This document shows, piece after piece, positions 174-17,800 of a stretch of DNA of 64,000 nt; the stretch's first letter is position 1, and every line of letters starts with the position of its first letter. The notes under the pieces were generated by a model. The model was not told where the DNA came from and searched no databases. It saw nothing but the letters and a program-made list of their open reading frames with translations. The position numbers and the translations under genes were made by a program. The stretch comes from an uncultured archaeon (GTDB taxonomy: Archaea > Asgardarchaeota > Thorarchaeia > Thorarchaeales > Thorarchaeaceae): contig CAZLEV010000005.1 in the NCBI GenBank assembly GCA_964558645.1, forward strand, positions 160,001-224,000, read 5' to 3'.

Positions 174-203
174 CTACCCAGTCAGACGGTATCTGTGCCT
201 GCC
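174..203 (-). repeat. Displaced nrdD 3' terminus, copy A (putative att scar)
   Basis: Minus strand encodes GRHRYRLTG*, versus true NrdD end DRHRYSLTG* at 14855-14884. Confidence 0.85.
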
Positions 204-329
204 CGGGATCACAGCACGGCGTACCCATCTACGTTTTCCACAACAAAAGAAAAGGGAGGAAGATGGGAATCCAATATCTCCAGCTCAGGAGATGGGAGGG
301 CCATCGAAGTCAGCACCGATGATGTCACG

Positions 330-426
330 CTACCGGTTCTGCATCGTCTCGTCTGCCAACACACTCTCACGGATCATCTTCTGGCAGTACGTGCACTTGT
401 ACCAATGAACGCCATTGTCGTCAACA
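330..426 (-). pseudogene. 5'-truncated copy of the small zinc-ribbon gene at 9068-9223
   Basis: Encodes VDDNGVHWYKCTYCQKMIRESVLADETMQNR*; the N-terminal HKDC half is missing where the repeat breaks at 426. Confidence 0.7.
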
Positions 427-786
427 GAGTGGAAGAAAGGGCTCGTCAACCACGAATATGTAATGAGGATAATTGAGGAGCTGATTCCAAGAATCATCTT
501 CACAGAACAGGGAGAGGAAGGGATCGTCGACCTGTTGGATCGCAAAGTGGAGTATCAACGGAAACAAACCTCTGCAGACCCGATCGAGCAGGCCGACCTT
601 GCGGAGGTTCTTGTGTAATACGCTCAGGCCCTGTTGAAAGACGAGAAATCTTCTGCAGCAAGGGACCATGGGGAAGAAGCAATCAGTATCTACGAGAAGC
701 AACTAGAGAAATGGGGGAGTGAAAATATACGACTGGAACTTGAAACAGCGAAAGAATTCTTGAAAGATTTGAAAGAGAGAGAATAG
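427..786 (+). pseudogene. C-terminal remnant of a TPR-like helical protein with a premature stop
   Basis: Frame continues through TAA 616-618: ...DLAEVLV*YAQALLKDEKSSAARDHGEEAISIYEKQLEKW...KERE* (TPR-like pattern); no credible start. Confidence 0.55.
676..738. repeat. Diverged direct repeat (partner 4327-4390) flanking the ABC exporter module
   Basis: gaagcaatcagtatctacgagaagc-aactagagaaat vs gaagcaatcagcatctacgagaagccaactggagaaat; weaker similarity continues to tggaa. Confidence 0.75.
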
Positions 787-936
787 CAGCTATATGGCAC
801 ACTCACTTTTCTCTGATTGTTTGTATTGTTTCATCAAATTAGGTTCAGGCGTGTGTCCCAAAATAAAGGTTAGCCTTATAAACAACTTACTCTAATTATA
901 AATGAGGGTTTCAATAACCGTCAGGAGTGTAGTAAT

Positions 937-1602
937 TTGGGAAGAAGAGTCAGATTATGCTTAGTTATGATTGCAGTTACCATTCTAGCATCGAATGTTT
1001 CTGATGTTTCAGCGCTATGGTTAGGTAATGCTACCGCACCTTACGACGATTCGGATACCTATGAAACCACACCCGGTGAATACCATACTGTGGATGGTGA
1101 CGCAATATCAGGAATATGTGAAATTCAAGTGGATCCAAAGGTTTGGCCCCTTTGGTATGGTAAAGGACTCTACGGAGAGGCGTGGATTGCTGAAGATGTA
1201 GAAATGTCTGAAACTATTACATCTACGTGGTATTTCACAGCTCAATGGGATATCGACTTTCGATTGAATTGTGGATGGGGTGGCAAAGTAAAAATTGAGG
1301 TCCGCTTTCTTGTCATGGATGCAAACGGGGATGAAAAACAATCCAAGAGCGCATGGTCATACACATTCACAGGCCCTGCTTTTAGCTGGGATGATTACGA
1401 GAATGTCATTACAGATGATAGCGAGACTGAGGCTTTCAGCTGTTATCTGTATAGCGGTTACACATACAAATTCGCTGTTGTCTTAAGAGTCACTGTAATG
1501 AACGACTCCGGTGCAATAGATGTAAACGCTCGAACCGATCATTACGCCCCTGCCGAACTCACGGTCGATCAGATCACATGGTCAGAAACCCCTCCAGACT
1601 AG
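937..1602 (+). CDS. Secreted hypothetical protein, beta-strand-rich
   Basis: TTG start after aggag; basic + hydrophobic signal peptide ending VSA; Trp/Tyr/Thr-rich mature part with no anchor; TATA-like ttataaa at ~876. Confidence 0.75.
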   Translation: MGRRVRLCLVMIAVTILASNVSDVSALWLGNATAPYDDSDTYETTPGEYHTVDGDAISGICEIQVDPKVWPLWYGKGLYGEAWIAEDVEMSETITSTWYFTAQWDIDFRLNCGWGGKVKIEVRFLVMDANGDEKQSKSAWSYTFTGPAFSWDDYENVITDDSETEAFSCYLYSGYTYKFAVVLRVTVMNDSGAIDVNARTDHYAPAELTVDQITWSETPPD

Positions 1603-1688
1603 TTAAAAGGGATATAGTTCTTTTCAATGGAAAGGAACTATTCCTTCTTCTTATTTCCAAGGTGCAAAGAAAGCGGTGATGGCATATA

Positions 1689-2669
1689 ATGAATAAACGA
1701 GAAAGGAGGAATAGTGATTCTCTACTCAAGCTCAAAGACCTATCTAAGACCTATCGAAACATAACTCTCGATGGCTTCATCCCAAGACACAAACAGGTAC
1801 GCGCGCTTGTGAGCGTGTCTGGTTCCTTTGAGGGCGGCATTCTTGGGCTAGTGGGGCCGAATGGTGCAGGGAAAACTACACTAATCAAGATAATTGCGGG
1901 GTTGTTGCATCAATCTTCTGGTAATCTTGAAGTCCTCGGTTATGACCCGTGGTCCGAATCGACAACAATGAAGGTAGAAATGGGATTCCTTCTTGAAGAA
2001 CCACAATACCCCCCGCTGAGCGGGCGGAAATACCTGAAGTATATATGTGAAATAAGAGGGTTTGACGGAAGCTCGGCTGAGAAGGAAACAGAGAGTCTCT
2101 TGGACCAGGTTGGGTTGTCGGGGGCCCAAAACAGAAAAATCTCAACGTATTCAGCAGGAATGCGTAGACGTCTGGGTCTTGCAGTAGCGCTGGTTGGATT
2201 GCCACGATTTGTGGTTCTGGATGAGCCAACAAAGTCTCTTGACCCTGATGGGCGAAGACTGTTCATGGAAACAGTGAATCAATATTACAAGGAGCACAAC
2301 ACTAGTTTTCTCATCTCAAGTCATATCCTGGCTGACTTGGAGCGGATCTGCACGAACGCATGGATCATCTCAGAAGGGGAGATCATAGCAGCTGGGACCA
2401 TGGCCGAGATTGCTGAGATGAAACGACCGACCAGATTTCTGATAGAGGTGGACAAACCGGAGGTGCTCTACGAGTATCTCCAGACGAATGGCTCTCTTAA
2501 AGAAGTAACAAGGGATGGACATCGATTGTATGTCAGGGGTGAGGAGAAAACCCTCTTCGATCTGATATCGAGGGGAGTACACCACCATGGACTAACTATG
2601 CAGAGATTTGAACCTGCAAAAGGAGAACTAGAGCGAATCATGTTCGGAGAAGATGATGGTGATGACTGA
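1689..2669 (+). CDS. ABC-2/CcmA-type exporter ATP-binding subunit
   Basis: Walker A GPNGAGKT, signature YSAGM, Walker B VVLDEP, H-loop SSH. Confidence 0.92.
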   Translation: MNKRERRNSDSLLKLKDLSKTYRNITLDGFIPRHKQVRALVSVSGSFEGGILGLVGPNGAGKTTLIKIIAGLLHQSSGNLEVLGYDPWSESTTMKVEMGFLLEEPQYPPLSGRKYLKYICEIRGFDGSSAEKETESLLDQVGLSGAQNRKISTYSAGMRRRLGLAVALVGLPRFVVLDEPTKSLDPDGRRLFMETVNQYYKEHNTSFLISSHILADLERICTNAWIISEGEIIAAGTMAEIAEMKRPTRFLIEVDKPEVLYEYLQTNGSLKEVTRDGHRLYVRGEEKTLFDLISRGVHHHGLTMQRFEPAKGELERIMFGEDDGDD

Positions 2670-3549
2670 TATGAGCAATTTGAGGAGATTGGGAACAAGA
2701 CTGCGGTCGTCACTGAGATCGTTTTTAGCTCTGATGAAAATTACCCTATCTCACAGTATCAGCGGGCTGTTTCTGATAGCATTGGCCTTCATTATAGTCT
2801 GGGGCCTCTGGGACATCTTCCGGATTCTACCAGGCTTCATGCAGAACCATATAACACAGATAGCTGATTACGACATGCCAAGCGATGCTATGTACGGCCT
2901 AGCGTTCAGCATGCGGTCGATTCAGTTTTCGATTCAGAATCTTATTCTTCCGGCTCAAACCTTTGTCATATTCCATGCCCTGACCGACACAATAGAAGCG
3001 GAGGATAAGACATTGATGACTCAACCAATCAGTAGTCGAGCTCTCTCTATCGCACGGTCTCTTGCCGCCATTAGTCCTATGATTGTATGCCGCTTAGGTC
3101 TATTGGTACTAGCAATCGTAACCTATTCGATAAATATCGCATCCGTGAATCTGGATTTTTCTCTGTTGCTCATTCAGACGATGGGAATCCCGATATTCGT
3201 CTATCTAATCCATGATGTCTTCCTGTTTTCTTTGGCCTACTTGTTGGGGAAGCTACTAAGGAACCCGATTCTTGGAGCGGTGGCAGCATATATGATGTTC
3301 TTCCCCTCCCCTCTTTCCAATTACTTGGATACGATACCTGTAGAAGGAGCTGGACTTAGACATTCTGAGTTCCTTGTGCTGTATGTGTTCTATCAGCCCA
3401 TATTCAACGCGAGATACGCAAGGTCGGTATGGAATTTGATGGGAGTCCCCATATCAGCACTCAGAACAGTAGTCAATATTTGGATTATTGGAGGTATATT
3501 GTTCATTGTAGTGCTTACAGAAATCCAAAGACGAATACTCTTGAGATGA
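2653..3549 (+). CDS. ABC exporter permease
   Basis: About 6 TM helices, LMTQPISSR (ABC-2 'PISR' motif); overlaps the ATPase stop. Confidence 0.75.
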   Translation: MMVMTDMSNLRRLGTRLRSSLRSFLALMKITLSHSISGLFLIALAFIIVWGLWDIFRILPGFMQNHITQIADYDMPSDAMYGLAFSMRSIQFSIQNLILPAQTFVIFHALTDTIEAEDKTLMTQPISSRALSIARSLAAISPMIVCRLGLLVLAIVTYSINIASVNLDFSLLLIQTMGIPIFVYLIHDVFLFSLAYLLGKLLRNPILGAVAAYMMFFPSPLSNYLDTIPVEGAGLRHSEFLVLYVFYQPIFNARYARSVWNLMGVPISALRTVVNIWIIGGILFIVVLTEIQRRILLR

Positions 3550-3552
3550 AGA

Positions 3553-4326
3553 TTGATGCAGCGTGTCAAGCTAACAGCGCGAAAAGCGTTCATACTGGCT
3601 AAGAGCACAGAGTGTTTCAAGTTCGCAAGTATCGCGGTAGCAATACTATGGATTATCAGGGCTGTTGTGTATCTCGAATTCCCCTTTGAGGGCTCATCCC
3701 CGTATTTGGGCATTGTCCTGCAGATTGAGTTCATGCAGGGTGGGACATTCCTCATGGTCCAGCTCATATTTGCAGGTCTCTTCTACCAGCTGTTCCTCTC
3801 AGAAAAACAGAACAAGATTGAAACCACGGTATTGCAGCAACCCATTTCAAAACGGTTTCTTATTGGCACCAAGATAGTAGTTCTTTCATTGGTGATATTG
3901 CTCTTTGAGGGGGGGCTCCTGATGCAATACTGGCTCCTTTCTGCCAGCGCGGTCGACATCCTTTCAATTGGATTTGCGATGATGGTCCTCCATTTGGCTG
4001 GCTTATTTCTTGTTACTGGAATCGGTTTCCTGTTGTATGTCCTTCCTGGACGAGGAACCGAAAAAATGATAGTGCACGTGTTCATGTTGTTTTTGCTTTA
4101 CATCCCGAATGTGTTCTTGGGCTTTGAAAGCGGTGATCTATTCCATTTCTTGCTCCCCCTTTTGTCCATCTCTTTGCCTGACGCTCAGAAAGCGTTACTT
4201 GAAGCGTTTCTCATGACAAATATTAGTCCGTCTATAATGCCGCTTATTTCCAGCTTTGGATTCTTTCTGACTGCCGGGCTGGTATTTTCACTAGTCATCA
4301 GATACACTGAAACCCATGGCAAGTAG
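3553..4326 (+). CDS. ABC exporter permease (second subunit)
   Basis: About 6 TM helices, E....I...LQQPISKR..LIGTK ABC-2 motif. Confidence 0.78.
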   Translation: MMQRVKLTARKAFILAKSTECFKFASIAVAILWIIRAVVYLEFPFEGSSPYLGIVLQIEFMQGGTFLMVQLIFAGLFYQLFLSEKQNKIETTVLQQPISKRFLIGTKIVVLSLVILLFEGGLLMQYWLLSASAVDILSIGFAMMVLHLAGLFLVTGIGFLLYVLPGRGTEKMIVHVFMLFLLYIPNVFLGFESGDLFHFLLPLLSISLPDAQKALLEAFLMTNISPSIMPLISSFGFFLTAGLVFSLVIRYTETHGK

Positions 4327-4390
4327 GAAGCAATCAGCATCTACGAGAAGCCAACTGGAGAAATAGGATGATGACGGTACGCGAATGGAA
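4327..4390. repeat. Diverged direct repeat (partner 676-738)
   Basis: Begins right after the permease stop; degraded copy of the TPR-remnant sequence. Confidence 0.7.
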
Positions 4391-4536
4391 AGGCTGAACG
4401 ATGATCATTCTTGAGACGACTTCATAGAGGAGATACTACGAAAGGAACAGAAAGAGAAGGAGGAGGGTCGTGACCGCAGTGCGGCCGACGACTGATTCTA
4501 ACCTGTTAGACTGTATCTGTGCCTGTCGATAAACTC
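4386..4536. repeat. Relic copy of the nrdD 3' end plus downstream flank (copy C; partner 14743-14893)
   Basis: Gapless 151-bp alignment at offset 10357, about 33 mismatches by eye (~78%); 4498-4536 minus strand encodes EFIDRHRYSLTG* vs EFLDRHRYSLTG*, mostly with synonymous changes. Confidence 0.9.
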
Positions 4537-4590
4537 CGGTCATTCGGACTGGTAGCGCCTAACGTTGCTACTGTGATCCCTATGACAGCA

Positions 4591-5559
4591 TTATATCTCG
4601 CGCCTCTTGTAGAAGACCACGAGAGCCACGATGCCAACCGCTACTCCAGTTCCCAAGATGAGCATAGATAGATAGTCCTGGCTAGAGGGATCGCCTTCTC
4701 CAATAAGGACCTGCCGTTGCATCTGTATCAGGTTCCCGTCGAATGCTACTGAGAATACAGTGGTTATAGTCAAATCATACCATGCATATTCTATGGGACG
4801 ATTATTCTTCATCATCCAGAGCCTGTATGTGGCCTCCGTCCTAAGTTCCCAGTGCAGTCTTGCAAGCATGCTGTCTGCATCGGAGTGCCGCCACAGAACG
4901 GCACTGAGGGGTGAATCAGAAAACCAGAAGGAGTGTCCAGTATAGTTGCTGCTCCAGAGAAGGACAAACACTGGGGGCCAGTTTTCTCTGACTGGTTCCT
5001 CCCAGCTGATGACATTCAGATTCCGTGTCAGATTCTCTCGAATCACGCAGGAGAGAGCCGTCTTCAGTGTGTCAACGTACTGTATCCCTGAGAAGACTTG
5101 CATCGAGTCAACTATGTCGGGATGGGGCCAGTTGTCAGTTGAGTTCGGGCCATAGTGTGAACTGAAGAGGGCTTGTGTGAAACAGGACTCGTTCATAGCA
5201 ACAAAGGCGTCGAATCGGGTGAAAGGATAGGTCGTGGTGCCGTTGGCCTCCTGCTCCTCCTGCACCTCGGTATGTTGGAGGAACAGAAGGGACTGATTGT
5301 ACTGCCCCATCAGCTCACTCGCGGTCTGATTGGAGAGGAGATGAGGACTGTACGTCTCTGCATGACCCCATACGTCCAGTCCCAAGAACAGGACCTCGTG
5401 GTCTTCGACGGTCAGGGTAACATTGTGGGGAGGACTACCCTCGGCGGGAATGTGAGGCCAATCCCAAGCATACGTTGGGTACATTGCCCCACGTTTCCCT
5501 GAAACAACGGCTCCCAGTGTTAGGAGAAGGATGAATATCGCCACGAGCTCCTGTCGCAT
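4591..5559 (-). CDS. Membrane-anchored surface hypothetical protein
   Basis: Signal peptide MRQELVAIFILLLTLG, NxS/T sequons, C-terminal TM + KRR; start moved to ATG 5559 to avoid overlap. Confidence 0.75.
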   Translation of the reverse strand: MRQELVAIFILLLTLGAVVSGKRGAMYPTYAWDWPHIPAEGSPPHNVTLTVEDHEVLFLGLDVWGHAETYSPHLLSNQTASELMGQYNQSLLFLQHTEVQEEQEANGTTTYPFTRFDAFVAMNESCFTQALFSSHYGPNSTDNWPHPDIVDSMQVFSGIQYVDTLKTALSCVIRENLTRNLNVISWEEPVRENWPPVFVLLWSSNYTGHSFWFSDSPLSAVLWRHSDADSMLARLHWELRTEATYRLWMMKNNRPIEYAWYDLTITTVFSVAFDGNLIQMQRQVLIGEGDPSSQDYLSMLILGTGVAVGIVALVVFYKRREI

Positions 5560-5569
5560 TACTCGCACC

Positions 5570-6916
5570 TCAGTAGGTGTTGTACCAATAGTCATACAGG
5601 ACTATCCATTTCCAGTCATTCCCACTAAGTTTTCCATTTGTGTGGCTGCCATCATAGATATCCCACGTCCCGATACTATCATCTGCGCAAGAAAGGATTT
5701 TGACCGAGTTGAACACAATTCCCTTTCTGTAATAATAGCAGCCAGGATTATTGAACTCGTTCCAAGTTGCATCAATATGAATCCAGTAATCTCCGGTCCA
5801 CACCTCATTCCAGGCATGGGCCTTCGAGTTTCCCTGATTATCAGTGAAGTAACCAACCAGATATCGAGACGGCAGTCCTATCACGCGTAGAAATGAGCCA
5901 AGCACTGCAGCGTATTCATCACAGAGTCCACGCCAATTATAGTTGTACGTCCACATATCTGCGTTTGTGGTCCAAGAGGTATCGTCGTCCTTGTAATAGC
6001 TCATCAGGTTATGGACACGGAAAGACAGAATATACGCAGTGGTCGCAGGCTCGCTCCATTCGTTATCTACTAGGAAACCGGCTTGATAGACAATTGGTGG
6101 TTCTGTACACCTGTGCAGAGCATATAGAACAAATATGTTGTAACCATCGTCTGGCATACCCTCCCAGTAGTAGTCGGGGTTCTGTGACGCTGCAGTCATG
6201 CTATCGCTAGGAGGCAGGCCACCATATTTCTGCAAGTCAGCCGGACCATACCGCGCAACAAACTCATAGTCCCATTCCCAACCGCGGGATACCCAGTCCC
6301 AAGACATCCCTGGAGCCGCTTCAGGTTCCACAGTTGTTACTCCATATGGCACTATACTCCCGCTCTTGTAGTAGGCCTTGCCAGATACTTGTACCTCGGC
6401 CCGCTTCAGCCCAACAGAATAGGAGGAAGAGAGATAGCACGCCAATGAATACTCGTCAGTTGGGCCGTCAATCCTGACATTCGAGGCGGATGAATAGACC
6501 TCTCTCTGCTCACCACCATCACCATCATGGTCAAAGCCCTCGAATACGAAGTCAAGATCTGCATAGACGTAGCCGTCCATATATACGTCAAACTGAACGT
6601 AGAAATACTCGGTCCTGGTCCAAAGAGATGGGACAGTCACTACAATGGTGATGCTTCGTGCATAGGCCTCTACCGTTTCCCCTTCCAGAATGTAGAGTGT
6701 CCTCACTGAAACAACTGACCCATCCTCCAACCTAGTCATATTCGGTATTGTCAGAGGCATTTCAAAATGCTCGATATCACTCGAATTTCCATTGCCTGTT
6801 GTCCCAGATAGGGGAGATTCCATCGGTATTGGAGCCGCCTGCACCATGACAGTGAAATTGGCTCCCATCCCGAACACTATAAGAAGTAATACCAGTACTG
6901 TAAGATAATTTCCCAT
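5570..6916 (-). CDS. Secreted transglutaminase-like (papain-fold Cys-His-Asp) protein
   Basis: GLCDEYA...LRVIGLPSR...HAWNEVW...WIHIDATW; signal peptide MGNYLTVLVLLLIVFG...VQA-AP. Confidence 0.85.
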   Translation of the reverse strand: MGNYLTVLVLLLIVFGMGANFTVMVQAAPIPMESPLSGTTGNGNSSDIEHFEMPLTIPNMTRLEDGSVVSVRTLYILEGETVEAYARSITIVVTVPSLWTRTEYFYVQFDVYMDGYVYADLDFVFEGFDHDGDGGEQREVYSSASNVRIDGPTDEYSLACYLSSSYSVGLKRAEVQVSGKAYYKSGSIVPYGVTTVEPEAAPGMSWDWVSRGWEWDYEFVARYGPADLQKYGGLPPSDSMTAASQNPDYYWEGMPDDGYNIFVLYALHRCTEPPIVYQAGFLVDNEWSEPATTAYILSFRVHNLMSYYKDDDTSWTTNADMWTYNYNWRGLCDEYAAVLGSFLRVIGLPSRYLVGYFTDNQGNSKAHAWNEVWTGDYWIHIDATWNEFNNPGCYYYRKGIVFNSVKILSCADDSIGTWDIYDGSHTNGKLSGNDWKWIVLYDYWYNTY

Positions 6917-7420
6917 CTGAATCCACCACGAATTCGTCAAATAATATGCGGACATCTATGATAAGTCTTTCGAGGCGTCAGTCTCTGTAGAAAAATCAGT
7001 GCGATCATGGTCGTGGGGATTGTAATCGTCATCAATTCCTAGACACAGTGCTAGCAGTCCGACATTCCAAGATGGAAACAAGACTCACTTCGATACTTTA
7101 CTGTGAATTATTCTACAGAGCCGAGTCGTCATGTATAGGTCGGTCATCAACTCTGTGGTGACGGGGCAATCCCACAGCCAGCATACCGCTCTTTCCTACC
7201 TAAGAAGACGTAAAGAATATGGGCCATGTCTATAGTGCATCAGATCAATGAATCGGTTGAGAGTTGTTGCCACCCTCCAAATAGAGCAGTTGTTTCTCTG
7301 CTACTGAGTACTTGCGTCTGGAGGAAAGTTGGCGTTGTACTTATTGGGGTCTCTCCATCAGAGTTTTATGCCATCTTTTCTATCTTCAACACTAGAAAGC
7401 CGGCTTTAGGGAGAATTCAA

Positions 7421-8854
7421 TTGAAACCGGGAACGACCACCTTGGTTGCGCTCACCGTAGCGTTGTTAATTATCTCACATATCTGCATCACAACGAATCA
7501 ACCACCTACTCTGCGTTCTGGACTAAAGGATTCGCTACCGGCATCTTATGTTGACCATGATCCCATCGTCATCAACGACAACCAGGGCTTCGCAGATCAG
7601 GGCTGGCCGGGCTCCGGCACGGAGGAGGACCCCTACGTCATCTCTGGCCTGAACATCACGAGTAACGACATCTGCATTTTCATCTACGGAACGAGCATGT
7701 ATTTCATTATCCGTGATTGTGTAATCTCTTCTGCCGGCACATCCTTGGGATATGGCATCCACGTTGTGGGAGCCCAGCATGGATCCATACAGAAATGCAT
7801 CGTCAGCCACCATACTGTCGGCATCTCCATCATGGGCTGTACCGATTGTGCCTTGAAGAACAATACAGTGAGCCAGTGCGAGAGAGGAATGGACCTGCAG
7901 GGTGCCGAAGACTGTAGAGTGATTGGCAATACCGTCACGGAGAATAATGTCTACGGAGTAGTCATCGTCGAGTCGTCTGACTGCACAATCACCAACAACA
8001 CAGCCATCGAGAACAAGAGGGGATTTCTTCTGACTGGTTCAGACAGGATACTCCTGACAAACAACATTGCCACCCATAGCAATAGGATTGGGTTTCATAT
8101 CAGTGGCATCCCCCGTCATGGCTCCGTAGTCACCTCGGATGACTGCATTCTGAGTAACAACACGGCCATTGCAAACACAGAAAGCGGGTTCCTGTTAGAT
8201 TACACAAGGAACTGCACGCTTGTAGAGAACACAGCAGAACAGAACCAGTACGGTGTCTACCTGTCAGAAGCGTCTCGCAGTAGCTTGGTCTACCTGAATG
8301 CACTGTTCAATAATACCGTGAATGGATTTGACAATGGCACCCTGAACCGGTGGGATAATGGAACCCACGGCAACTACTGGGGCGACTATGATGGCACAGG
8401 CCCCTACGATGTCCCCGGGCCAGCTCAGAGCGCCGACGACCATCCCTTTGTCTACGGACTCGTTCCACCCCAGATAGACCAGCCGCCCGACGTCGAATAT
8501 GAGGTGGGGACAGCAGGACACTCGATCCAATGGAATCCCTCGACCTCGCATTCTGACTCGTATGACCTCTTCCTGAATGGCACCCTCATAGAGTCTGGCG
8601 AATGGGAGGAGAACAACTTCACCGTTGATGTCGATGGGCGGGATGCGGGAGTGTACAATTACACATTGGTGGTCCGGGATATCACCGGAAACACTGCGCG
8701 GGACACTGTGATGGTCGTCGTCAAGCCCTCTGCGCTCCCAGACAATCCATTCCTGCATCCGGTGGCACTCTTCATAACACTGCTCGGAGCCTCTATTGCC
8801 GCAGTCTTTGGAGGGCTTCTGGTTCGCCACAGGCTCAGTCGTCATTCTACATAG
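7421..8854 (+). CDS. NosD/CASH right-handed beta-helix surface protein with Ig-like domain and C-terminal TM anchor
   Basis: GWPGSGTEEDPYVI motif, repeated C.[IL].NNT..N..G beta-helix turns, GNYWGDY; likely TTG start 7421 after agggag. Confidence 0.85.
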   Translation: MKPGTTTLVALTVALLIISHICITTNQPPTLRSGLKDSLPASYVDHDPIVINDNQGFADQGWPGSGTEEDPYVISGLNITSNDICIFIYGTSMYFIIRDCVISSAGTSLGYGIHVVGAQHGSIQKCIVSHHTVGISIMGCTDCALKNNTVSQCERGMDLQGAEDCRVIGNTVTENNVYGVVIVESSDCTITNNTAIENKRGFLLTGSDRILLTNNIATHSNRIGFHISGIPRHGSVVTSDDCILSNNTAIANTESGFLLDYTRNCTLVENTAEQNQYGVYLSEASRSSLVYLNALFNNTVNGFDNGTLNRWDNGTHGNYWGDYDGTGPYDVPGPAQSADDHPFVYGLVPPQIDQPPDVEYEVGTAGHSIQWNPSTSHSDSYDLFLNGTLIESGEWEENNFTVDVDGRDAGVYNYTLVVRDITGNTARDTVMVVVKPSALPDNPFLHPVALFITLLGASIAAVFGGLLVRHRLSRHST

Positions 8855-9164
8855 GTCCTCTTCGCTCAGAGTACTCTTAAAGAAATAAGAAGTTCAGACA
8901 CTCCGAGAATTCTACCCAGTCAGACGGTATCTGTGCCTGTCCGGGATCACAGCACGGCGTACCCATCTGCGTTTTCCACAACAAAAGAAAAGGGAGAAAG
9001 ATGGGAATCCAATATCTCCAGCTCAGAAGGCGGGAGGGCCATCGAAGTCAGCATCGATGATATCACGCTACTGGTTCTGCATCGTCTCGTCTGCTAGTTC
9101 GCTCTCACGAATCATCTTCTGGCAGTACGTGCACTTGTACCAATGAACGCCATCGTCGTCGACA
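8739..9164. repeat. Long direct repeat, copy 2 (copy 1 at 1-426)
   Basis: See copy 1. Confidence 0.95.
8912..8941 (-). repeat. Displaced nrdD 3' terminus, copy B (putative att scar)
   Basis: Minus strand gacaggcacagataccgtctgactgggtag = DRHRYRLTG*. Confidence 0.87.
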
Positions 9165-9223
9165 TATTGTTCCACTATGTACCCACCACAGTCCTTGTGC
9201 CTGATTCGTGCCGTGGTCCTCAT
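9068..9223 (-). CDS. Small (51 aa) zinc-ribbon protein, absent from the ORF track
   Basis: MRTTARIRHKDCGGYIVEQYVDDDGVHWYKCTYCQKMIRESELADETMQNQ*: HxxC...CxxC; differences to the truncated copy at 330-426 keep both Cys and about half are synonymous. Confidence 0.7.
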   Translation of the reverse strand: MRTTARIRHKDCGGYIVEQYVDDDGVHWYKCTYCQKMIRESELADETMQNQ

Positions 9224-9769
9224 GGTTCGTGGCGTCCCTCTTCATCTGATACATCATCGTGGGAATGGCTCGGGTCAGCTGTTATGTACCTAGCCACGTC
9301 ATCAGGGACGTTCCCCCGTTGACATCCGCGATACGCCTAGTGGCAGTGTATAAGCGTCGTGGTATGACCCATAGTGTTATCGCGATGCTGTGTCTTGATA
9401 AACATACACACAAGGAGTGGTATGAAGCCCGCATGTCATAGAACGGGGAGTGAGAGGGGCGATTCATGCGACCTGTCAATGCCAGTGGGAAAAGAACTCA
9501 CCTTGATAGAATATGAAACGATAAGGCGTGGGAATAGACCGAATCAGTTGTTAGAACCATTCCGGAGTGGTACGTAAACAACCATCGTTCCACCTCTTTC
9601 TATCCTTCCTTTAGTTTTTCCACTCTTCACTCAATATCATCTGGGGAATGACTCTTTTGTCTATAGGTTAAATGAAAGAGAATGCATAGCAAAGAAAGAC
9701 GTTAGGTATCTGGAATGAAGGCCAAATGGTTATAAGCTCAAAAGAGATTTAGCTTGGGAGCTGATTCGC

Positions 9770-12700
9770 GTGAGAATGAGGAGATATCAGATCCTAGCCG
9801 CCATTTTGATTGTTTCATTTGTCGTGAATCCGATAGTAGCGATATCTAACTCAGGTCAAATCACTGATGTTAAGATGTTCTCGACAAACATGGAATCAAA
9901 ATCGCGAAATAATGAATACAGAGTGAATATTCTCTTTGATGCGAGTGATATTACCTGTGTTCGAGCAGCACGAGAACTTGAGACAAAGTTACAGAGTACT
10001 GAGCTGATACTCAGGATGATAGCAGTAGACTCTGAGGAGACCCTGTTCATATACACGAAGAACTCGGAGATGAATGTCTATATCTTTCATGGGACACAAC
10101 GGGGGATGTTGCTAGCATCAGAACTCATTCACTGGCAAACAATTGACCGTCTGGTGAGAGATTCAAGAACAGAACATCATATCTTCCAAGTGTGCCATTC
10201 AAACATACTAGAGATGATTCTGCCAGGCTTTGGTGTCCATGGTCTTCAAGGGACAATCGATCGAGAGATTGCTCTCTTTGGTGCCCTGAGTACTATATAT
10301 GAGATTCTGGATGGTTCTCCACTCTATGCAGAACTTGCTGACTCTGTCTTTGAAATCACAACTTCCTATCTCTTGGAGAACTTGTACGATATCCTCCAAC
10401 GGGGTCTTGAACCTAGAGAAACTCTCGATGGGTTCTATATTGACTATGGGCAGACTAAAACAGACTCCAGAGGACCTTGGGGGTGGATTATTGATGTCAT
10501 CCAAGGACTTCTTCTAATTGCTGGATTCGACACAAACTCTTGGTTCACGAACACGAATTCCACCCATATTGAGTTCGATAGAAGTGCGATAAAGGGAGGG
10601 GCAAGTGACAGCGGGTCCCTTGAGATGGAAGATATGGGTAAGGGCGATTCTGAAACTGGAGAGTTCCCCTTCGATATTCCACTAGACTTTCAGGTTACTC
10701 CCAGAATCGGTACAGGTCCTTGGTATATGCCCGAATACGTAGACCTCGTCTTCACAGTCCAAGCTGAGGGTGGAGCACTAGATCTCGGAGAGGTCATTGG
10801 ACTCAAGCAGGTAATGCAGGCTGCAGGATATGATGTCAAATTAGAACTCACACCAAAACTGCAGGCAACTCTAAGAATTGGCAACTTCATAGACCAAATA
10901 GGGAATGCAAATCCCTCAATTGATGAGAGTCCCTTCAAGTTCATGGGAGGATCCCTATCCATTGAACTCGGTTTTGAACTTGGGATTCCCTTGGCAACCT
11001 TTCTCGACTATCTGATTCCCGGGACAGGAAAGACTGTCAAGACCATTATGGACGTTCTGAACATGAAGGTCAATCTGGTCAACTATCTTGCACTCGCACT
11101 GGGAATGAGTTACAACACCACTACTGAGGCCTCTACACAGGATGTCACTCTAAAGGTTGGCTTTGGCTTGGATATATCACTGAAACTTCCTTCTCCAGCG
11201 AGTTACATCAAGAAAGCAATCGGAGTCAGTCTCCCTCTAGATTTCATTAAACTCGGTATGGAGCTGAGGGCAAAGACTGGCATCATCGCTAAGGCCACTT
11301 TCGGTCATAAGGGAGACTCTTTCAAAGTGGGCCTATTTTACAATCTGTTCTTCAAGTTCTATGCCGCCATCTTTTGGATATTCAAGTTTGATGTGACCAA
11401 GGAATGGAAGGACACCATCTGGTTCATAGAGGTTCAGGGTTCGAGCTCCGGTCCTCCACCCACCAACGATCATGCTAATCTGGACCTTGACGGTGACGGA
11501 CTGTGGGATGATCTGGAGATAAGTATGGGCTTGGATCCTACAAATGCAGATACGGACGGAGATACACTCTCTGACGGAAATGAATTGCTTTTCTATTTCA
11601 CCAGTCCCTTCCTTCAAGACAGTGATTCGGATGGGCTTCGGGATGATGTTGAGATTGCTGCGTTCTATGCAGTGAATCTTGATCCCTTTGCAGATTATGA
11701 TAATGACGGATTACCCTGTATCATTGACTATGATTCCGATAACGATGGTCTCAATGATAAGGATGAACTAGTTGGAAGGAATAGTGCTTACTGGATGGAA
11801 ACCAATCTTAAGACAGATCCTTCTCTTCCCGATACCGACTTTGATGGGTTCACAGATTCAGAGGAATGGGCCTTTGCCGGACCCGCACTTGAATTGCCTC
11901 ATCCAGACCCTCGAAAGAGGGATTCTGACTCGGATGAGTTGTGGGACTTTTTCGAATACAATTGGTACGAGAGTGAATACGGGGTCTCCGACCCATCAAC
12001 CCGAGTGAACTATATTCTCAATCCTGATGTCGATGGTGAGGGTCTCAATGATGGTCTGGAATATACCTATCGCACATCACCTCTCGACATTGACACAGAC
12101 GGTGACTACGACCTAAACGACGACAACATCATCGACACGGCTGAACGGAACAACGCTATCAATAATGGGTACTATGGTGATTTCACAGATTATGGAGAGG
12201 TCATGGGAAATGTCTGGTCGGCTCATCCCTTCGGCTTGGATGACTGTGTCCCACCTAATCCTACCGTGACAAATCCATTGCGAGCTGACTCGGATAACGA
12301 TGGAATCTCAGATGTAGATGAGTATACAGCTGATACTCTCCCTGTTGGATATGACCATGATGGTGATGGTATTGAAGATGTTGCAGACAAGTATTTCTTC
12401 CATGCAAACTGCACGAAGCAAGATACGGACAATGATGGTATTCCGGATGGAATTGAGGTCAACTACTTCAATCTGACACGAGGTATCTCAAATACCACCA
12501 TCGCCAACCTGCAGTATCTCAACGACCCAGATGTTGATGACGATGGTGTTCCCGATGGACTTGAGCTGAGGATTGGTACTGATCCATTGAACAATGATAC
12601 TGATGATGATGGACTCTTGGATGGAGAAGAACTTGAAATTGGTTCTGATCCACTAATTCCAGATACTGATGGAGATGGCCTCCTAGACGGTGAAGAAGTA

Positions 12701-14500
12701 CATATCTATGGTTGTAGCCCCTTGCGGATAGATACTGATAATGATGGATTACCAGATTCCATGGAAGTTCAGGAGACCACTATCTGGATTCTCTATCACG
12801 GGAACTTCACTTATGTCACAGATCCAAATGACCCAGATACAGACGGTGACCAAATCTGTGATGGTGAGGAATACTATGGGTGGAACTGGGCTCTTAATAG
12901 AAGTGTGCTTCCAGGAGCCCATGTGATTACCGAACCCCTGCAAGAAGAGGATGATGAGTACATTCTCGTGCAATACTACGGTGCACCTGACCCATATCGT
13001 GCTCGCTTCCAGACACATCCAAACAATCCTGATACCGATTTCGATGGAATCCCAGATGGTGTTGAAAAGAACATCGTCCTCTCTCCTGTGACCAACGACA
13101 CCGACGCAGATGGATGGCTCGACCTCGATGAGATTGGAGCGATGGAGGCAAGATTTGGTGTGCCATGGAACCAAGTCCCAGCAGATATCTGGCATTATTT
13201 CGACTATGATCAGGACGGTCTAAGTGACTTTGCTGAAGTGCACTATGGGACAGACATGCTCAATCCTGATACAGATATGGATGGGCTTGATGACTGGACC
13301 GAGCTTTTTGTTGCTGCATCTGTTGCCACTTATGACTACGAGTTCTTTGATCCAGTGGTAGGAATCACGATGACCACCAACACATCACTATCTGATAATA
13401 AGAGATACACAAGTCCCACTTTGCCGGATACTGACCTTGATGGTATCAGTGATTACTGGGAAATCCAGTACGGAACTGATCCTACTCATCCAGACACTGA
13501 TGAGGATGGTCTCTCAGATTATGATGAGCTTGTGACCTATCATACCTTCGAGGGACTAAACAGAGTGTCTTTAGATCCCTTAAGCAACGATACAGATGCG
13601 GACGGTATTTCGGATCTTGACGAGGTGAATATCTGCATTGCAAGATACAACGTAAGTGGTAACCCATTGCATCTCCCCTTGGGTGACTATGATGGAGATG
13701 GAATCGTCAATATTCTAGACTATGACTCAGATGGTGATGGGATCTACGACTCCTTTGAGTTCTACGAGTATGATGATCCGTCATGGAGTTGGTATCCATT
13801 AGGTACGGACATGTTCGATGCAGACCAGAACGCAGATATGTGGGTGGATGGAATGGACACGGATTTTGACCACGATGGATTATCAGACTATCATGAGTTG
13901 ACAATGATTATCCCGGGTTACACCTACACGGGACTTGGTGATGAGAACACCACTGCTCGGCACTATTCACATCTACTGAATCATACAATCTGCACGCTAT
14001 ATGATACAGATGGAGATGGGTATTCTGATGGGTATGAAATCGATTTCGGATCGGACCCCCTCAACAAGTACAGCTTACCGAACACCTTTCTATGGACATT
14101 ACCAGACCTTGGGTATCGGGTTGGCTTCTGGTCCTCATCAAACATAGAGAACCTGCAATTCAACGTTGAGCTTGGGTCGATAGAATTTGATGTGAGCGGG
14201 CCTGATCACACATACGGGTTCTGCAATGTCAGTGTACCAATGGACCTACTCTTCTCTCCAGTAAATGAGTGGGAGGTCTTGTTGGATGGTGAACCCATCG
14301 AGTATGTAGCAACAATGAATGCGACTGCGACCTTGCTTCACTTCGAGTACTTCCACAGCACCCATCATATCACCATTCGAGGTGCTCAAGTCCTAGATCC
14401 ACCTGGTGGTTTTGATCCGCTATTACTGATTGTGATTGGCTCACTAGCAGGAGTTGTCGTAGTAATAATCCTCGTGTACCTATTAAAGAAAAGAACCTAG
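9770..14500 (+). CDS. Large (1576 aa) surface protein with many Ca-binding thrombospondin type-3-like (DxDxDG) repeats
   Basis: Signal peptide; dozens of P...D[TS]DxDG[LI]xDxxE units; C-terminal TM + KKRT. Confidence 0.88.
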   Translation: MRMRRYQILAAILIVSFVVNPIVAISNSGQITDVKMFSTNMESKSRNNEYRVNILFDASDITCVRAARELETKLQSTELILRMIAVDSEETLFIYTKNSEMNVYIFHGTQRGMLLASELIHWQTIDRLVRDSRTEHHIFQVCHSNILEMILPGFGVHGLQGTIDREIALFGALSTIYEILDGSPLYAELADSVFEITTSYLLENLYDILQRGLEPRETLDGFYIDYGQTKTDSRGPWGWIIDVIQGLLLIAGFDTNSWFTNTNSTHIEFDRSAIKGGASDSGSLEMEDMGKGDSETGEFPFDIPLDFQVTPRIGTGPWYMPEYVDLVFTVQAEGGALDLGEVIGLKQVMQAAGYDVKLELTPKLQATLRIGNFIDQIGNANPSIDESPFKFMGGSLSIELGFELGIPLATFLDYLIPGTGKTVKTIMDVLNMKVNLVNYLALALGMSYNTTTEASTQDVTLKVGFGLDISLKLPSPASYIKKAIGVSLPLDFIKLGMELRAKTGIIAKATFGHKGDSFKVGLFYNLFFKFYAAIFWIFKFDVTKEWKDTIWFIEVQGSSSGPPPTNDHANLDLDGDGLWDDLEISMGLDPTNADTDGDTLSDGNELLFYFTSPFLQDSDSDGLRDDVEIAAFYAVNLDPFADYDNDGLPCIIDYDSDNDGLNDKDELVGRNSAYWMETNLKTDPSLPDTDFDGFTDSEEWAFAGPALELPHPDPRKRDSDSDELWDFFEYNWYESEYGVSDPSTRVNYILNPDVDGEGLNDGLEYTYRTSPLDIDTDGDYDLNDDNIIDTAERNNAINNGYYGDFTDYGEVMGNVWSAHPFGLDDCVPPNPTVTNPLRADSDNDGISDVDEYTADTLPVGYDHDGDGIEDVADKYFFHANCTKQDTDNDGIPDGIEVNYFNLTRGISNTTIANLQYLNDPDVDDDGVPDGLELRIGTDPLNNDTDDDGLLDGEELEIGSDPLIPDTDGDGLLDGEEVHIYGCSPLRIDTDNDGLPDSMEVQETTIWILYHGNFTYVTDPNDPDTDGDQICDGEEYYGWNWALNRSVLPGAHVITEPLQEEDDEYILVQYYGAPDPYRARFQTHPNNPDTDFDGIPDGVEKNIVLSPVTNDTDADGWLDLDEIGAMEARFGVPWNQVPADIWHYFDYDQDGLSDFAEVHYGTDMLNPDTDMDGLDDWTELFVAASVATYDYEFFDPVVGITMTTNTSLSDNKRYTSPTLPDTDLDGISDYWEIQYGTDPTHPDTDEDGLSDYDELVTYHTFEGLNRVSLDPLSNDTDADGISDLDEVNICIARYNVSGNPLHLPLGDYDGDGIVNILDYDSDGDGIYDSFEFYEYDDPSWSWYPLGTDMFDADQNADMWVDGMDTDFDHDGLSDYHELTMIIPGYTYTGLGDENTTARHYSHLLNHTICTLYDTDGDGYSDGYEIDFGSDPLNKYSLPNTFLWTLPDLGYRVGFWSSSNIENLQFNVELGSIEFDVSGPDHTYGFCNVSVPMDLLFSPVNEWEVLLDGEPIEYVATMNATATLLHFEYFHSTHHITIRGAQVLDPPGGFDPLLLIVIGSLAGVVVVIILVYLLKKRT

Positions 14501-14518
14501 GATAAACGAGGAGTTGGA

Positions 14519-14556
14519 ACGGGAGGGTTGCTCTTCCCTCTCGTTTACTCATTTTT
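14519..14556 (+). terminator. Hairpin + T-tract downstream of the TSP3-repeat gene
   Basis: acgggaggg-loop-ccctctcgt followed by ttactcattttt. Confidence 0.45.
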
Positions 14557-14742
14557 GGTGCTTTGTCTCTTAGGGCACCTAGGTCTTTTCGGAGCCTCTC
14601 AGCATCTTCTGGACCTTCTAGCGATATGACTCTGTAGCCCATGCTCTTCAGCCGTTCTCTCCTCCTCATCTGCCTCGACATCGCAAGCCCCACTCCGTTC
14701 GCTCTTAGACGCCTATCGATGGCCGCGGAAAGAGGGCGCGTC

Positions 14743-14893
14743 TGGAAAGGCTTAACGATGGTCGATATTGGGATGACTCGATAGAAGATACGCTACGAGA
14801 GCAGCAAAAAGAGAGGAAGGAGGGTCGTGACAGCGCTGCGGCCGACGACCGACACTACCCAGTCAGGCTATATCTGTGCCTGTCCAAGAACTC
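14743..14893. repeat. True nrdD 3' end and flank, homologous to 4386-4536 (tail also at 174 and 8912)
   Basis: Direct alignment; the plus strand carries a convergent ORF remnant LERLNDGRYWDDSIEDTLREQQKERKEGRDSAAADD. Confidence 0.9.
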
Positions 14894-17800
14894 TTGGCGC
14901 TTAGATTGATTCCACGTTGAGAGACTCTGGACGTACCCGGTAATTCTCGAGAAAATATCGCACCCAATGTGTCCACAGCGCGGGCAGGGGATGTTTTCCA
15001 GCTCCTCGATTGAACTGAACTTCGTCGAGCGCCAGTCGATACTGCTCTGATAGGCGCATTCCGGGCATAGAATTACATCTTTAGTAAAAGCAAAATATGA
15101 ATTAAGTGTTGTTTCAGCAATCTTCCTCGTCAGCGCCCACAGTGCGTTAGGGTCAGGGTTGGCCTCACCTAGGTACACATGCGTCAACGCGCCACCGTCG
15201 AGGAACGGATGGAACATACCCTCCTTCTTGATTCGCTGGCTCAGCGGCAGGTCGGCTGCCACATCGAGGGTCGTGCTGTTCGTGTAGTAGACATTGGGCG
15301 CATCGCCCTTCAGATACTTGCGGATGCCTGGATATGAGCGATAGTCCTTAGCAGCCAACCGACCGGCAGCGCTCTCTGCGGGAGTACGCGTCACACCAAA
15401 GTGCAGCCCGGTCTCCTCTCGATACTCATCAGCCCGCTTCTTGAGATGCTTGAGCACCTTGATGCCGAAGCGTGTGCCGTCTCGCTCGTGGAGATGCTGA
15501 CCGGTCTGAATCAGAGCCATCTCTTCAAAGCCCACTGTTCCCAGCAGGAATTCTCTGGTGGACATGTTAATCAAGGGGTCACCGTTGGGCTTTGGTTGCG
15601 TGTAGAACGGAACGCTGCCGCTTGCGATGAGCTTGTCCATGAGGCGTTTCTTCTCCAGAATGACCTCCTTTGACAGTTCGAGGTACTCATCGACCTTCTC
15701 AAAGAAGCGGTCCTCGTCGGAGCGACCGATATAGGCGGCCCTCCCGAAGTTGGGAGTGACCATCTGCGAAGCACCGAAGACCATGTTGCCTGAGAGGAAC
15801 TCCTCCATCTCCTCGTCGGTGCTAGCGGTCCAGAGGTGAGAGCAACAGCTGCTGCAGCCTGCCTCTATCTTAGAGCGCCAGTTCAAGTAGTTCTCGAAAT
15901 AGGGACTACCATGAAGCGCCGTGAGCTCGGCGACCTTTCTCCATGACTCGTCATAATCGTTCTTCATGAACTCTTTTCTGAGCACTATGTTGGGCTTCGG
16001 GAAGCTGAAGGCCTTACCCTTATGGTCACCCTTTATCATGACCTCCATGAAGGCATCAAAGAACTGATTGGCCTCGTCCTCGAAATCACCATAGGTGTCA
16101 CGGCCCGTCTTCCCACCTGGAAGCACTGCCTCCACATCTCGCATGATCTTTGGAATACCGGGTGTCAGGTCCACACTTGAGAAAATGACCTGGCCGCCCC
16201 GGGCGACGTATTGCTGCGTGAGTGTGAATATCAGCTGCTGAGCGGCCTGCTTGATCTCCTTGTACGACTTGCCCGCCATGAAGGGCGCGAGGAATGTGTT
16301 GAAGAAGAAATACCCTTGGCCGCCGGAATTGTGCAGAATTATCCCGCCGTGTCCGCCTATGAAGTTCTCATAATCATCAACGGACAAGTCATAGACTTGA
16401 CCCTCGAAGCTCTCTCGTTCGATGACTTCGACTATGTCAAAAGCCACATCCCCACTAGTAAGATGCCGTAACGACTCAATCTCGTCTGAGTAATCAACGG
16501 CAGTGTCTGAGAATTCGATTAACTGGTCAAGGACAGCACCAAAGAGATGAGGGGCCATATGCTGCTTCTGGAATATTGCATTGATTCTTGGTATTTTGCT
16601 ATGTGTATGTGGCACTCCCATCTTGCTGATGAGTTCTCGCACGTTCGTTTTCTCAATTGGAATCGCATCGGGAAGCGAGGTTGTTGTTAGCTTTCGAGTC
16701 TTGTATTCGAAGTCCTCAGTGGTAATATCGGGAATGTGTGCTGCAAACCGTCGTATGTTCTCCCGGCCATAAATAGAAGTGCGATAACCAACACTCTTCC
16801 GTATCGTACGATTACCGATCTTGTGGCTTGATGATCTATGGGTCCTCTGCCTGGCAATGATACCCAGCTGGAGAAGGAGATAGAGCAAATCGGTGCTTAG
16901 CCCTTCTGTAACTGAAGTGAACTCGATGCTTCTTCTGTGTATATGACCATCGCAGAAGTATCCATTCAAGAACTCCCACTTAATCTCGGCAGAACCGGAT
17001 AGCACTACGGGCGGAATCCTCTTGTCTTTAGCATTCCGACCTGTTCTGAGAATCTCTGTCATGATAAGAGCGACTAATTTGTTGCAGATAACAAGCTGAA
17101 TCTCGGTCTCATGGGGGCGTTGTACATTGATATCAGCACCCCATACACATCGGATGCATTTCTTCGCATCTTCAATTCGGTGTTTCTCATGAACGCCAAA
17201 GCTGAGCACTATTGCATTTGGCTCCTTGTGGCGGTCAAGACCGATATTTCCCTCCGCAGCGAAATATCCTAAGAACCGGGACAATTCACGACTAATGTCA
17301 ATCTCGGCAGGCAATTCGTAAGATGATCGTGATAGACTTAACAGAGAACCTGAGAAGTCAATATCGCGATTGTGATCTCGAACCTTCAATAGTGAAACGC
17401 TGTTGCGTCTTCTTTCCCATTCCTCCAGCTCACTCAACTGATCGGCAATACCCTTGACATACACAGAAGAGATCTTGTCTTCGCCAAGCTCAAGAAGGGC
17501 ATGGGCTATATCAAGAGTATTGGGACCATCGCCATTAGGGAGCACACGGGGTACTGCAATCAAGTCGCCTTCCTTCAAGTTGATCACTGCGATGGGTTTG
17601 ACCTTTCCATTCTCAAGCGTGAATAGACTGTGTGAACCTGTACACCGGATTTCGCGTCCAGTACGAGTACGTATTCTGTATACATCGTCTGATATCGGAT
17701 GACGAATGACCCTGTTGATCTCCTTTCGTTCAATTATCATTGTTTCAGGGTTGAAAGCATAAGTATAGAGACCGTCCCCTGTGATATCAGCAACCTCGCC

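Follow-up and report, generated by a model that had tools for sequence, protein, structure and literature searches.

Integrons and CALINs, arrays of gene cassettes, have been described in archaea (PMC9668308). In Dehalococcoides, about half of the islands that accumulate at ssrA carry a serine-integrase module, and the repeats that separate them have a conserved upstream motif of 15 bp (PMC3146451). Displacement arrays are also found at T6SS effector-immunity and rhs loci, where it is the variable, functional toxin tip of the C-terminus that is swapped (PMC5361080). The nrdD gene is itself a target of Tn7-like elements in archaea, including Asgard archaea, and in bacteria; these depend on TniQ and TnsBC, insert outside the gene and leave its tail unduplicated (10.1101/2025.07.27.667033). 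Here we report that in Thorarchaeota gene cassettes accumulate as an array behind the 3' end of nrdD. We found no earlier description of this array in the literature; it resembles an integron, but an integrase that builds it was not found.

Tail copies and cargo in the window

The window analysed is a stretch of 64,000 nucleotides from a contig of an uncultured Thorarchaeal archaeon. Its live nrdD (14855..18598, minus strand; Pfam NRDD and translation) encodes a class III ribonucleotide reductase of 1247 aa, the N-terminal half of which contains a LAGLIDADG intein (Pfam Intein_splicing and LAGLIDADG_3). The glycyl-radical Gly codon occupies 14938-14936 and is followed directly by the Tyr codon that opens the repeated unit, which runs to the stop codon (14855..14935, minus strand) and whose left boundary is taken from displaced tails across the family. 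The original prediction placed same-orientation copies of the nrdD end at 14855, 8912, 4498 and 174, and all four lie there on the minus strand. Scored against the last 30 nt of nrdD, displaced tail 1 (DRHRYRLTG*, 8912..8942, minus strand), which lacks its left part, aligns with 27/30 matches, tail 2 (EFIDRHRYSLTG*, 4498..4536, minus strand) with 25/30, and tail 3 (GRHRYRLTG*, 174..204, minus strand), a duplicate of tail 1, with 26/30. A fifth copy (HRHGCSLTG*, 25/30) is found 4042 bases left of the window, at about 155,958 of the contig. Tail 2 represents an allele different from the live one; six of its seven changed codons are synonymous, and the proposal that tails come from other or earlier nrdD alleles is supported. 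Beyond the known tails, the next best match in the 3.6-Mb genome scores 20/30. Of the genome's 1519 ORFs of at least 300 aa, five are followed within 25 kb by a copy of their tail, more than two copies are seen only for nrdD, and no other gene has three or more displaced tails. The left arm is absent from all four displaced tails of this genome, so that the G|Y edge described below cannot be seen in the window.

The 118 nt past the live stop (14737..14854, plus strand) look like a decayed remnant, the 3' end of a convergent TPR-like gene, a likeness judged from the translation alone, and are a 78% repeat of 4380-4497, downstream of the 4498 tail. Block 1 carries a TSP3-repeat surface protein of 1576 aa with a signal peptide and C-terminal anchor (9770..14500, plus strand; Pfam TSP3_bac, with NCBIfam CglD-like stretches), which has a 94% identical counterpart at a later array rank in G001, a genome of the same genus. 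What had been read as a Zn ribbon is a broken CxxC-bearing remnant (8941..9164, minus strand), duplicated at 203-426, that precedes the same tail in a second genome of the genus, G002. Block 2 holds a beta-helix (NosD-like) membrane-anchored protein (7226..8854, plus strand; Pfam) of the commonest cargo family in relatives' arrays (10 loci), a transglutaminase-like protein (5570..6955, minus strand; Pfam Transglut_core) and a 334-aa protein of no family with a signal peptide and C-terminal anchor (4591..5595, minus strand). A MITE-like insert of about 145 bp with terminal inverted repeats (6981..7125, no strand assigned) is newer than block 2, being missing from the G002 ortholog and from the second copy of the block, and has several dispersed relatives in G001. 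In block 3 a secreted protein, an ABC ATPase (Pfam ABC_tran) and two membrane proteins (937..4326, plus strand), not found in G001 or G002 by DNA search, adjoin a decayed convergent TPR-like gene end (4327..4497, plus strand), the first 41 nt of which recur at 676-715, so that this remnant brackets the ABC genes. Block 4, left of the window, is a repeat of block 2, with the fifth tail at its end.

Tails 174 and 8912 lie within a duplication of about 3 kb (window -2444..426 against 6140..9164, 86-90%) that reaches about 250 nt upstream of the tail, and they therefore represent one junction copied twice. The predicted cargo types (TSP3, beta-helix/NosD, transglutaminase and ABC ATPase) are confirmed by Pfam, but the blocks do not each hold different cargo, as two of them are one duplicated unit. 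We conclude that the array in this window is old and reworked, its blocks partly duplicated and eroded, and is not a set of four clean independent insertions.

Arrays across the family and the junction inside nrdD

Displaced nrdD tails were found in 32 of 86 Thorarchaeal genomes, with 177 tails in 90 loci (some of them redundant), none on the opposite strand and up to ten in one array; these counts leave out 11 matches that were live nrdD ends. No displaced tails were seen downstream of nrdD in the approximately nine loci read from outside the family. A single ORF is present in 92 of 127 cassettes, whose median length is about 970 bp-1 kb, and the membrane-rich cargo, in mixed orientation (77 vs 92), includes small membrane proteins, surface proteins, restriction-modification systems and other defence-like genes. 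Tails show more decay towards the distal end of an array (Spearman -0.37, p=0.005, a significance that is overstated as kin are not independent). One cassette of about 980 bp occurs at ranks 1-3 with differing neighbours, G001 and G002 have the same pieces as the window array in other orders, and assemblies are often broken at the tails. The view of the nrdD 3' end as an insertion hotspot thus holds family-wide, with polarised growth, and the richness of the arrays in membrane and secreted proteins bears out the suggestion of an integron-like, variable locus.

Intact displaced tails have a sharp start at the Tyr codon that follows the glycyl-radical Gly (RITG|Y), where they are joined to unrelated DNA; the repeated unit is the last ~75 bases of nrdD. 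Measured on 68 non-redundant, in-register junctions from at least five genera, invariant bases were matched at 83/272 positions just upstream of this point and at 188/272 just downstream. The GG of the Gly codon is retained in 11/68 junctions, compared with a background of 3.8%, and the edge is therefore bimodal. The 113 flanks upstream of junctions are unrelated to each other, and no common motif, hairpin or arm was found in them; on the donor side one cassette family has several different ends, and a few displaced copies extend further upstream, to about -120 to -205. The terminal TA of the tail is preserved almost as well as internal bases. An attC-like hairpin was not detected, either as inverted matches between the tail start and the upstream flank (7.4 vs 7.4 expected) or by folding 19 clean junctions without dedicated attC models (z about -0.8 to 0), and Rfam and promoter scans found nothing. 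Duplication of the whole tail as a target site was ruled out, since identity between the live tail and the first one is very rare. The idea that the T4 sunY intron sits at this codon boundary was likewise rejected, the annotated intron lying in mid-gene.

Where pairs of arrays have upstream cargo at least 95% alike, the left arm of the tail is 94% identical and the right arm 84%; where they have downstream cargo in common the values are 58% and 88%. In strain pairs the left half of the tail tracks upstream cargo and the right half downstream cargo, which indicates that crossover inside the tail swaps cassettes, and switch points fall at -45 to -25 or -66 to -61. Between two genera with nrdD genes of 72% identity, the ~980-bp cassette is 87% identical, and its left arm is of donor type and its right arm of host type. 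Such swaps by crossover inside the tail thus occur even across genera. Identical runs are longer between live and first tails than between unrelated tails (14.5 vs 9.9 nt), and identical cassette ends can be joined to live-like tails that differ from base -61 onward.

Search for an integrase, and competing explanations

A check for an integrase beyond the left edge of the window had been suggested, and none was found in the 40 kb read there (Pfam on the nearer 20 kb, with a genome-wide search also made). The genome has one tyrosine recombinase, on another contig, which was rejected as the builder because it is a provirus-type gene of patchy distribution; no serine recombinase, resolvase, IS110, Y1 transposase or reverse transcriptase was found in this genome. 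Across the 86 family genomes a tyrosine recombinase is present in 29, a large serine recombinase in two, IS110 in 13 and TniQ over cut-off in none (control genomes also hold none), and none of these tracks with the arrays. PF00589 occurs on a contig with a live nrdD end only in G095, a complete chromosome, about 320 kb away, and was not found in the array-rich G007, G022, G031, G085 and G086. Y1 transposase was likewise not found in five array-rich genomes, and LAGLIDADG was seen only in long frames, in two of the five. The nrdD intein is present in only 3 of ~30 family nrdD genes and absent from the array-rich genus, and is thus an unlikely cause; a NERD nuclease in one first cassette was ruled out as not recurrent. 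No cassette examined carries an integrase, and the only match on viral contigs was a virus's own nrdD. In G005, one displaced tail lies on a provirus-like contig, 11 kb from a tyrosine integrase and together with a D5-type primase and two weak HNH matches; copies of this integrase 95-97% identical to it sit beside core genes on tail-free contigs, and no full-length homologs were found at the threshold set. Of the proposal that nrdD is an attB, the 3'-end hotspot stands, but a classical attB with its integrase is not supported: no integrase tracks with the arrays in the 86 genomes, there is no common upstream arm, and many exchanges lie inside the tail and not at one crossover base.

The explanation we favour, with a chance that we put at about even, is that these polarised arrays arise by a site-specific break at the G|Y boundary followed by short-homology exchange. 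In a first step, DNA would be broken at a single fixed position, where the glycyl-radical Gly codon meets the Tyr codon behind it; a putative enzyme acting in trans would probably make the cut, with a stagger of about 4-5 nt. The Tyr-codon end would be joined to unrelated DNA, and the incoming DNA would supply the copy of the tail that completes nrdD, leaving cargo between two ~75-bp tails and the NrdD enzyme intact. In a second step, crossover between tails, at the switch points observed and with a presumed enzyme, would allow cassettes to be gained, lost and reordered, mostly where the tail encodes the conserved NPAKKQEF and in some cases at the junction; this would probably proceed by host recombination and by way of either circular intermediates or donor DNA. 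New cassettes would enter beside the live gene while older tails are displaced outward and erode from their left side. More tentatively, this could be a dedicated archaeal capture system, in which a trans-acting enzyme cuts at the glycyl-radical codon after recognising sequence in the nrdD tail, to one side alone, and in which every displaced tail can be used again. If so, excision and insertion of cassettes would need neither an integrase gene nor an attC hairpin, and Thorarchaeota would have in common a cross-genus pool of single-gene cassettes.

A clearly less probable account dispenses with a dedicated enzyme and invokes homology-facilitated illegitimate recombination anchored in nrdD, a model with precedent in the T6SS and rhs displacement arrays (PMC5361080), with spread by ordinary recombination between tails; a single founding event, or a small number of them, would have produced the G|Y edge, which conversion from live alleles would then maintain as the neutral flank diverged. 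Crossovers within the best-conserved block and at no single base, the longer identical runs of live and first tails, the fruitless recombinase search and duplication units in the window that are not bounded by tails would all fit. However, an illegitimate join has no reason to favour one codon, whereas the edge is at the same codon in several genera, beside 113 unrelated flanks and with genus-specific left arms; the terminal TA, preserved almost as well as internal bases, and the identical cassette ends on tails differing from -61 also speak against it. We consider it unlikely that nrdD is a classical attB for the tyrosine (or serine) integrase of a passing virus or plasmid, with cassettes as integrase-less, cis-mobilisable islets accreting in tandem as at ssrA in Dehalococcoides. 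The fixed edge, the restored gene, a bimodal 4-5-nt edge that could be an overlap or coupling sequence, and the G005 tail near an integrase are in its favour, but the displaced tail has no conserved arm comparable to the 15-bp motif at ssrA islands (PMC3146451), cargo is free of integrases in every case examined, the near-identical G005 integrase copies are on contigs without a tail, and switch points are often 20-40 nt into the tail. Local tandem duplication or mis-assembly in one genome, with no capture system, is very improbable and already largely refuted by the family survey: two of four blocks are a duplication, with tails 174 and 8912 as one junction, and tails often break assemblies, but the 10-14% difference between the copies rules out a collapsed repeat, G001 and G002 reorder the same pieces, and dozens of independent assemblies contain arrays of unrelated single genes.

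Significance and relation to known systems

The nrdD array represents a platform, present across the family, through which these Asgard archaea gain genes. Lacking an integrase, attC and tRNA, it would escape programs that look for integrons and islands. Its membrane, surface, restriction-modification and defence-like cargo suggests that arrays may drive cell-surface and anti-virus variation. They also bear on how new gene cassettes first arise and account for frequent assembly breaks at nrdD. Because the site is defined to one codon of an enzyme required for anaerobic DNA synthesis, a search for the enzyme or for circles is directly testable.

As in integrons and CALINs, the arrays consist of mostly single-gene cassettes with the newest beside a fixed platform site, and cassettes are reordered and common to several species and genera; unlike them, they have neither IntI nor attC hairpin, their repeat is copied from the end of a coding gene, their cargo genes point either way and many exchanges fall inside the repeat. 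With the Dehalococcoides ssrA islands and CIMEs they have in common a restored target, a former 3' end that persists downstream as a direct repeat, and tandem accretion of members without integrase. They differ in that all cassettes examined lack an integrase and are ~1 kb, the repeat is ~75 bp of protein-coding tail, no element-side arm is conserved and switch points fall in two zones. Tn7-like elements also use nrdD as a landing site, but such a transposon was rejected here, as TniQ was not found over cut-off in the 86 family genomes and the junction is within coding sequence. Like the T6SS and rhs arrays, nrdD arrays are polarised, without integrase in the cassettes examined, and made of displaced 3' ends probably spread by homologous recombination, and their donor-side ends vary. 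In contrast, the nrdD tail is functionally constant, the cargo is unrelated to the anchor gene and the recipient-side edge, which in HFIR displacement arrays would be a variable illegitimate junction, is fixed at one codon, at G|Y.

Copies of the nrdD end beside the gene

The window (G000:C5:160001-224000), from a family whose members are titled Thorarchaeota, carries nrdD on the minus strand at 14855-18598, with a LAGLIDADG intein inside; this intein is present in just 3 of some 30 nrdD genes of the family. A thioredoxin-like gene lies immediately upstream, and the neighbouring genes that were scanned included no activase gene. The original prediction that the end of nrdD is repeated in one orientation was borne out, as further copies of its last 30 bases lie at 8912 (27/30), 4498 (25/30) and 174 (26/30), with a fifth end copy beyond the window edge, at -4042 (25/30). 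All copies are co-oriented, and a search of the whole genome gave no comparable other site (next best, 20/30). Among 1519 long ORFs of this genome, nrdD alone had more than two downstream tail copies. The left part is missing from all four displaced tails.

Counting from nrdD, the first block encodes a TSP3-repeat surface protein, the second a beta-helix protein, a transglutaminase and an anchored protein, the third an ABC transporter and a secreted protein, and the fourth, past the window edge, is a second beta-helix/transglutaminase block of 86-90% identity. Each block is followed by a tail, the last of which leads into conserved genes. The expectation that each block has different cargo is correct for the TSP3, beta-helix/transglutaminase and ABC blocks, but not for the duplicated one. 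Since the duplication includes a broken CxxC remnant and extends about 250 bases beyond the tail on its upstream side, the tails at 8912 and 174 represent a single junction that was copied. Past the tail, the 4498 copy and the live end have 118 more bases in common, which resemble a convergent TPR-like gene end; this remnant also lies on both sides of the ABC genes, suggesting a second gene-end duplication, on the opposite strand. Three decayed copies of this TPR-like 3' end were located (427-789, 4327-4497 and 14737-14854), two of them flanking the ABC genes.

The same-genus genomes G001 and G002 hold the same pieces in a different order. In G001 the TSP3 block (94%) follows a tail that matches the -4042 tail in its left flank, and G002 has a single beta-helix block with a different gene before it and no ABC block that we could find. 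We conclude that the locus is real, variable and old. A MITE-like element of about 145 bp at 6981-7125, with terminal inverted repeats and a degenerate target duplication of about 9 bp, is single-copy in this genome and has at least five near-identical relatives scattered in G001.

Displaced tails across the family and their fixed left edge

DNA downstream of relatives' nrdD was collected, and 86 family genomes and metagenome contigs were scanned for tails. Displaced tails occur in 32/86 family genomes, and in 26 of the 49 with a located live end. The family survey gave none on the opposite strand, a reversed-pattern control scan gave zero matches, and about nine non-family nrdD loci had none. 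The longest arrays have 8 tails (G083) and 10 tails (a metagenome contig whose cassettes mostly consist of a single small membrane gene). Single-ORF cassettes make up 92 of 127 distinct cassettes, median length is about 970 bp, and ORFs lie in both orientations. A hydrophobic segment is present in 59% of cassette ORFs versus 28% in the window's own genome, with length cut-offs that differ between the sets; cargo further includes restriction-modification genes and enzymes. Tail decay is polarised, rising with distance from nrdD, so the array grows at the nrdD end.

When tails were aligned on the DRHRY codons, likeness to nrdD ended at one point, namely the Tyr codon that follows the glycyl-radical glycine in RITGY. 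Across 68 non-redundant junctions, picked by positions further right, the four invariant bases just upstream of this edge matched in 83/272 cases, near background, and the four just downstream in 188/272. The GG of the Gly codon was retained in 11/68 junctions (3.8% expected), nearly always with TA behind, a two-state edge consistent with a short staggered cut or overlap. To the left of the junction, different cassettes have unrelated DNA, in which no motif or hairpin was seen, and a single cassette family shows at least three kinds of end. A few copies reach beyond this edge on the upstream side, and several of these carry a lesion at the radical glycine or just ahead of it.

Near one end of locus L138 is an empty cassette, in which a second tail starts exactly at the live tail's stop codon, the TA of the stop replacing that of the Tyr codon in a 72-nt repeat. 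In a one-scaffold genome, two tails remote from nrdD (L102, G026:C1 at about 400-402 kb, and L050) adjoin N gaps, as does the live nrdD end there, and probably reflect mis-scaffolding from repeats.

Hybrid tails and transfer between genera

In strain-level pairs the tails are hybrids. Where upstream cargo was shared at ≥95%, the left arm of the tail was 94% identical and the right 84%; where downstream cargo was shared, the values were 58% and 88%, against backgrounds of 43% and 70%. Mapped to the base, switch points within tails fall mostly at -45 to -25, in the conserved NPAKKQEF codons, and no one base accommodates all; in three cases, including two live alleles, the switch is at the junction itself. 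Over the 7 codons that follow the radical Gly, live tails of close relatives frequently differ sharply, and Ser codons there alternate between TCN and AGY (G082 and G088 are 94% identical upstream and 64% in those codons), a sign of swapped tails.

Cassettes have also passed between genera. Nine genomes contain a luciferase-like cassette of about 980 bp, whose rank from the live nrdD ranges from 1 to 3 and whose neighbours vary. The copy in G067 is 87% identical to that of another genus, although nrdD differs by 28% between the two; its left arm is donor-type, and on the right it agrees with the live tail of G067 itself. Mis-binning could still account for this identity, although a right arm of host type speaks against that.

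Possible mechanisms and known systems

No array-building enzyme was found in the 86 family genomes, which are drafts, so that a miss does not mean absence. Tyrosine recombinases occur in 29/86, with none found in several array-rich genomes, large serine recombinases occur in 2/86 and IS110 in 13/86, TniQ in 0/86 above the cut-off, and the cargo examined held no recombinase-like gene. In G005, one displaced tail lies within a provirus-like contig (C17; L104:1-11500, L276) with a tyrosine integrase, a D5-type primase, two weak HNH-like genes and a TIR-domain gene; near-identical integrases are located elsewhere without tails. Elements of this type may carry cassettes between cells. A large virus-like contig (L117, L125, L126, L146, L158) carries an nrdD of its own that contains two inteins, ends in a very similar motif at the C-terminus and adjoins a thymidylate-synthase-like gene.

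We give an even chance to a joint account in which a site-specific break at the Gly/Tyr codon boundary would create the junctions and short-homology crossover would move the cassettes. Recombination alone, with the edge inherited, is possible but doubtful, and an integrase acting in trans, with accreting islets, appears unlikely. Local duplication or artefact is highly improbable.

Our search, within an incomplete coverage of the literature, found no published description of the nrdD array, which is possibly a new capture system. In archaea, nrdD is a target of Tn7-like elements, but their insertions lie outside the gene (10.1101/2025.07.27.667033). An integron array works alike, but the nrdD array fails the IntI and attC tests (PMC9668308). 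Gene restoration and tandem accretion are shared with ssrA islands, which in contrast have an integrase module and a flanking motif (PMC3146451). The displacement arrays of T6SS/rhs loci also resemble the nrdD array, which differs from them in its constant tail, unrelated cargo and fixed edge (PMC5361080).
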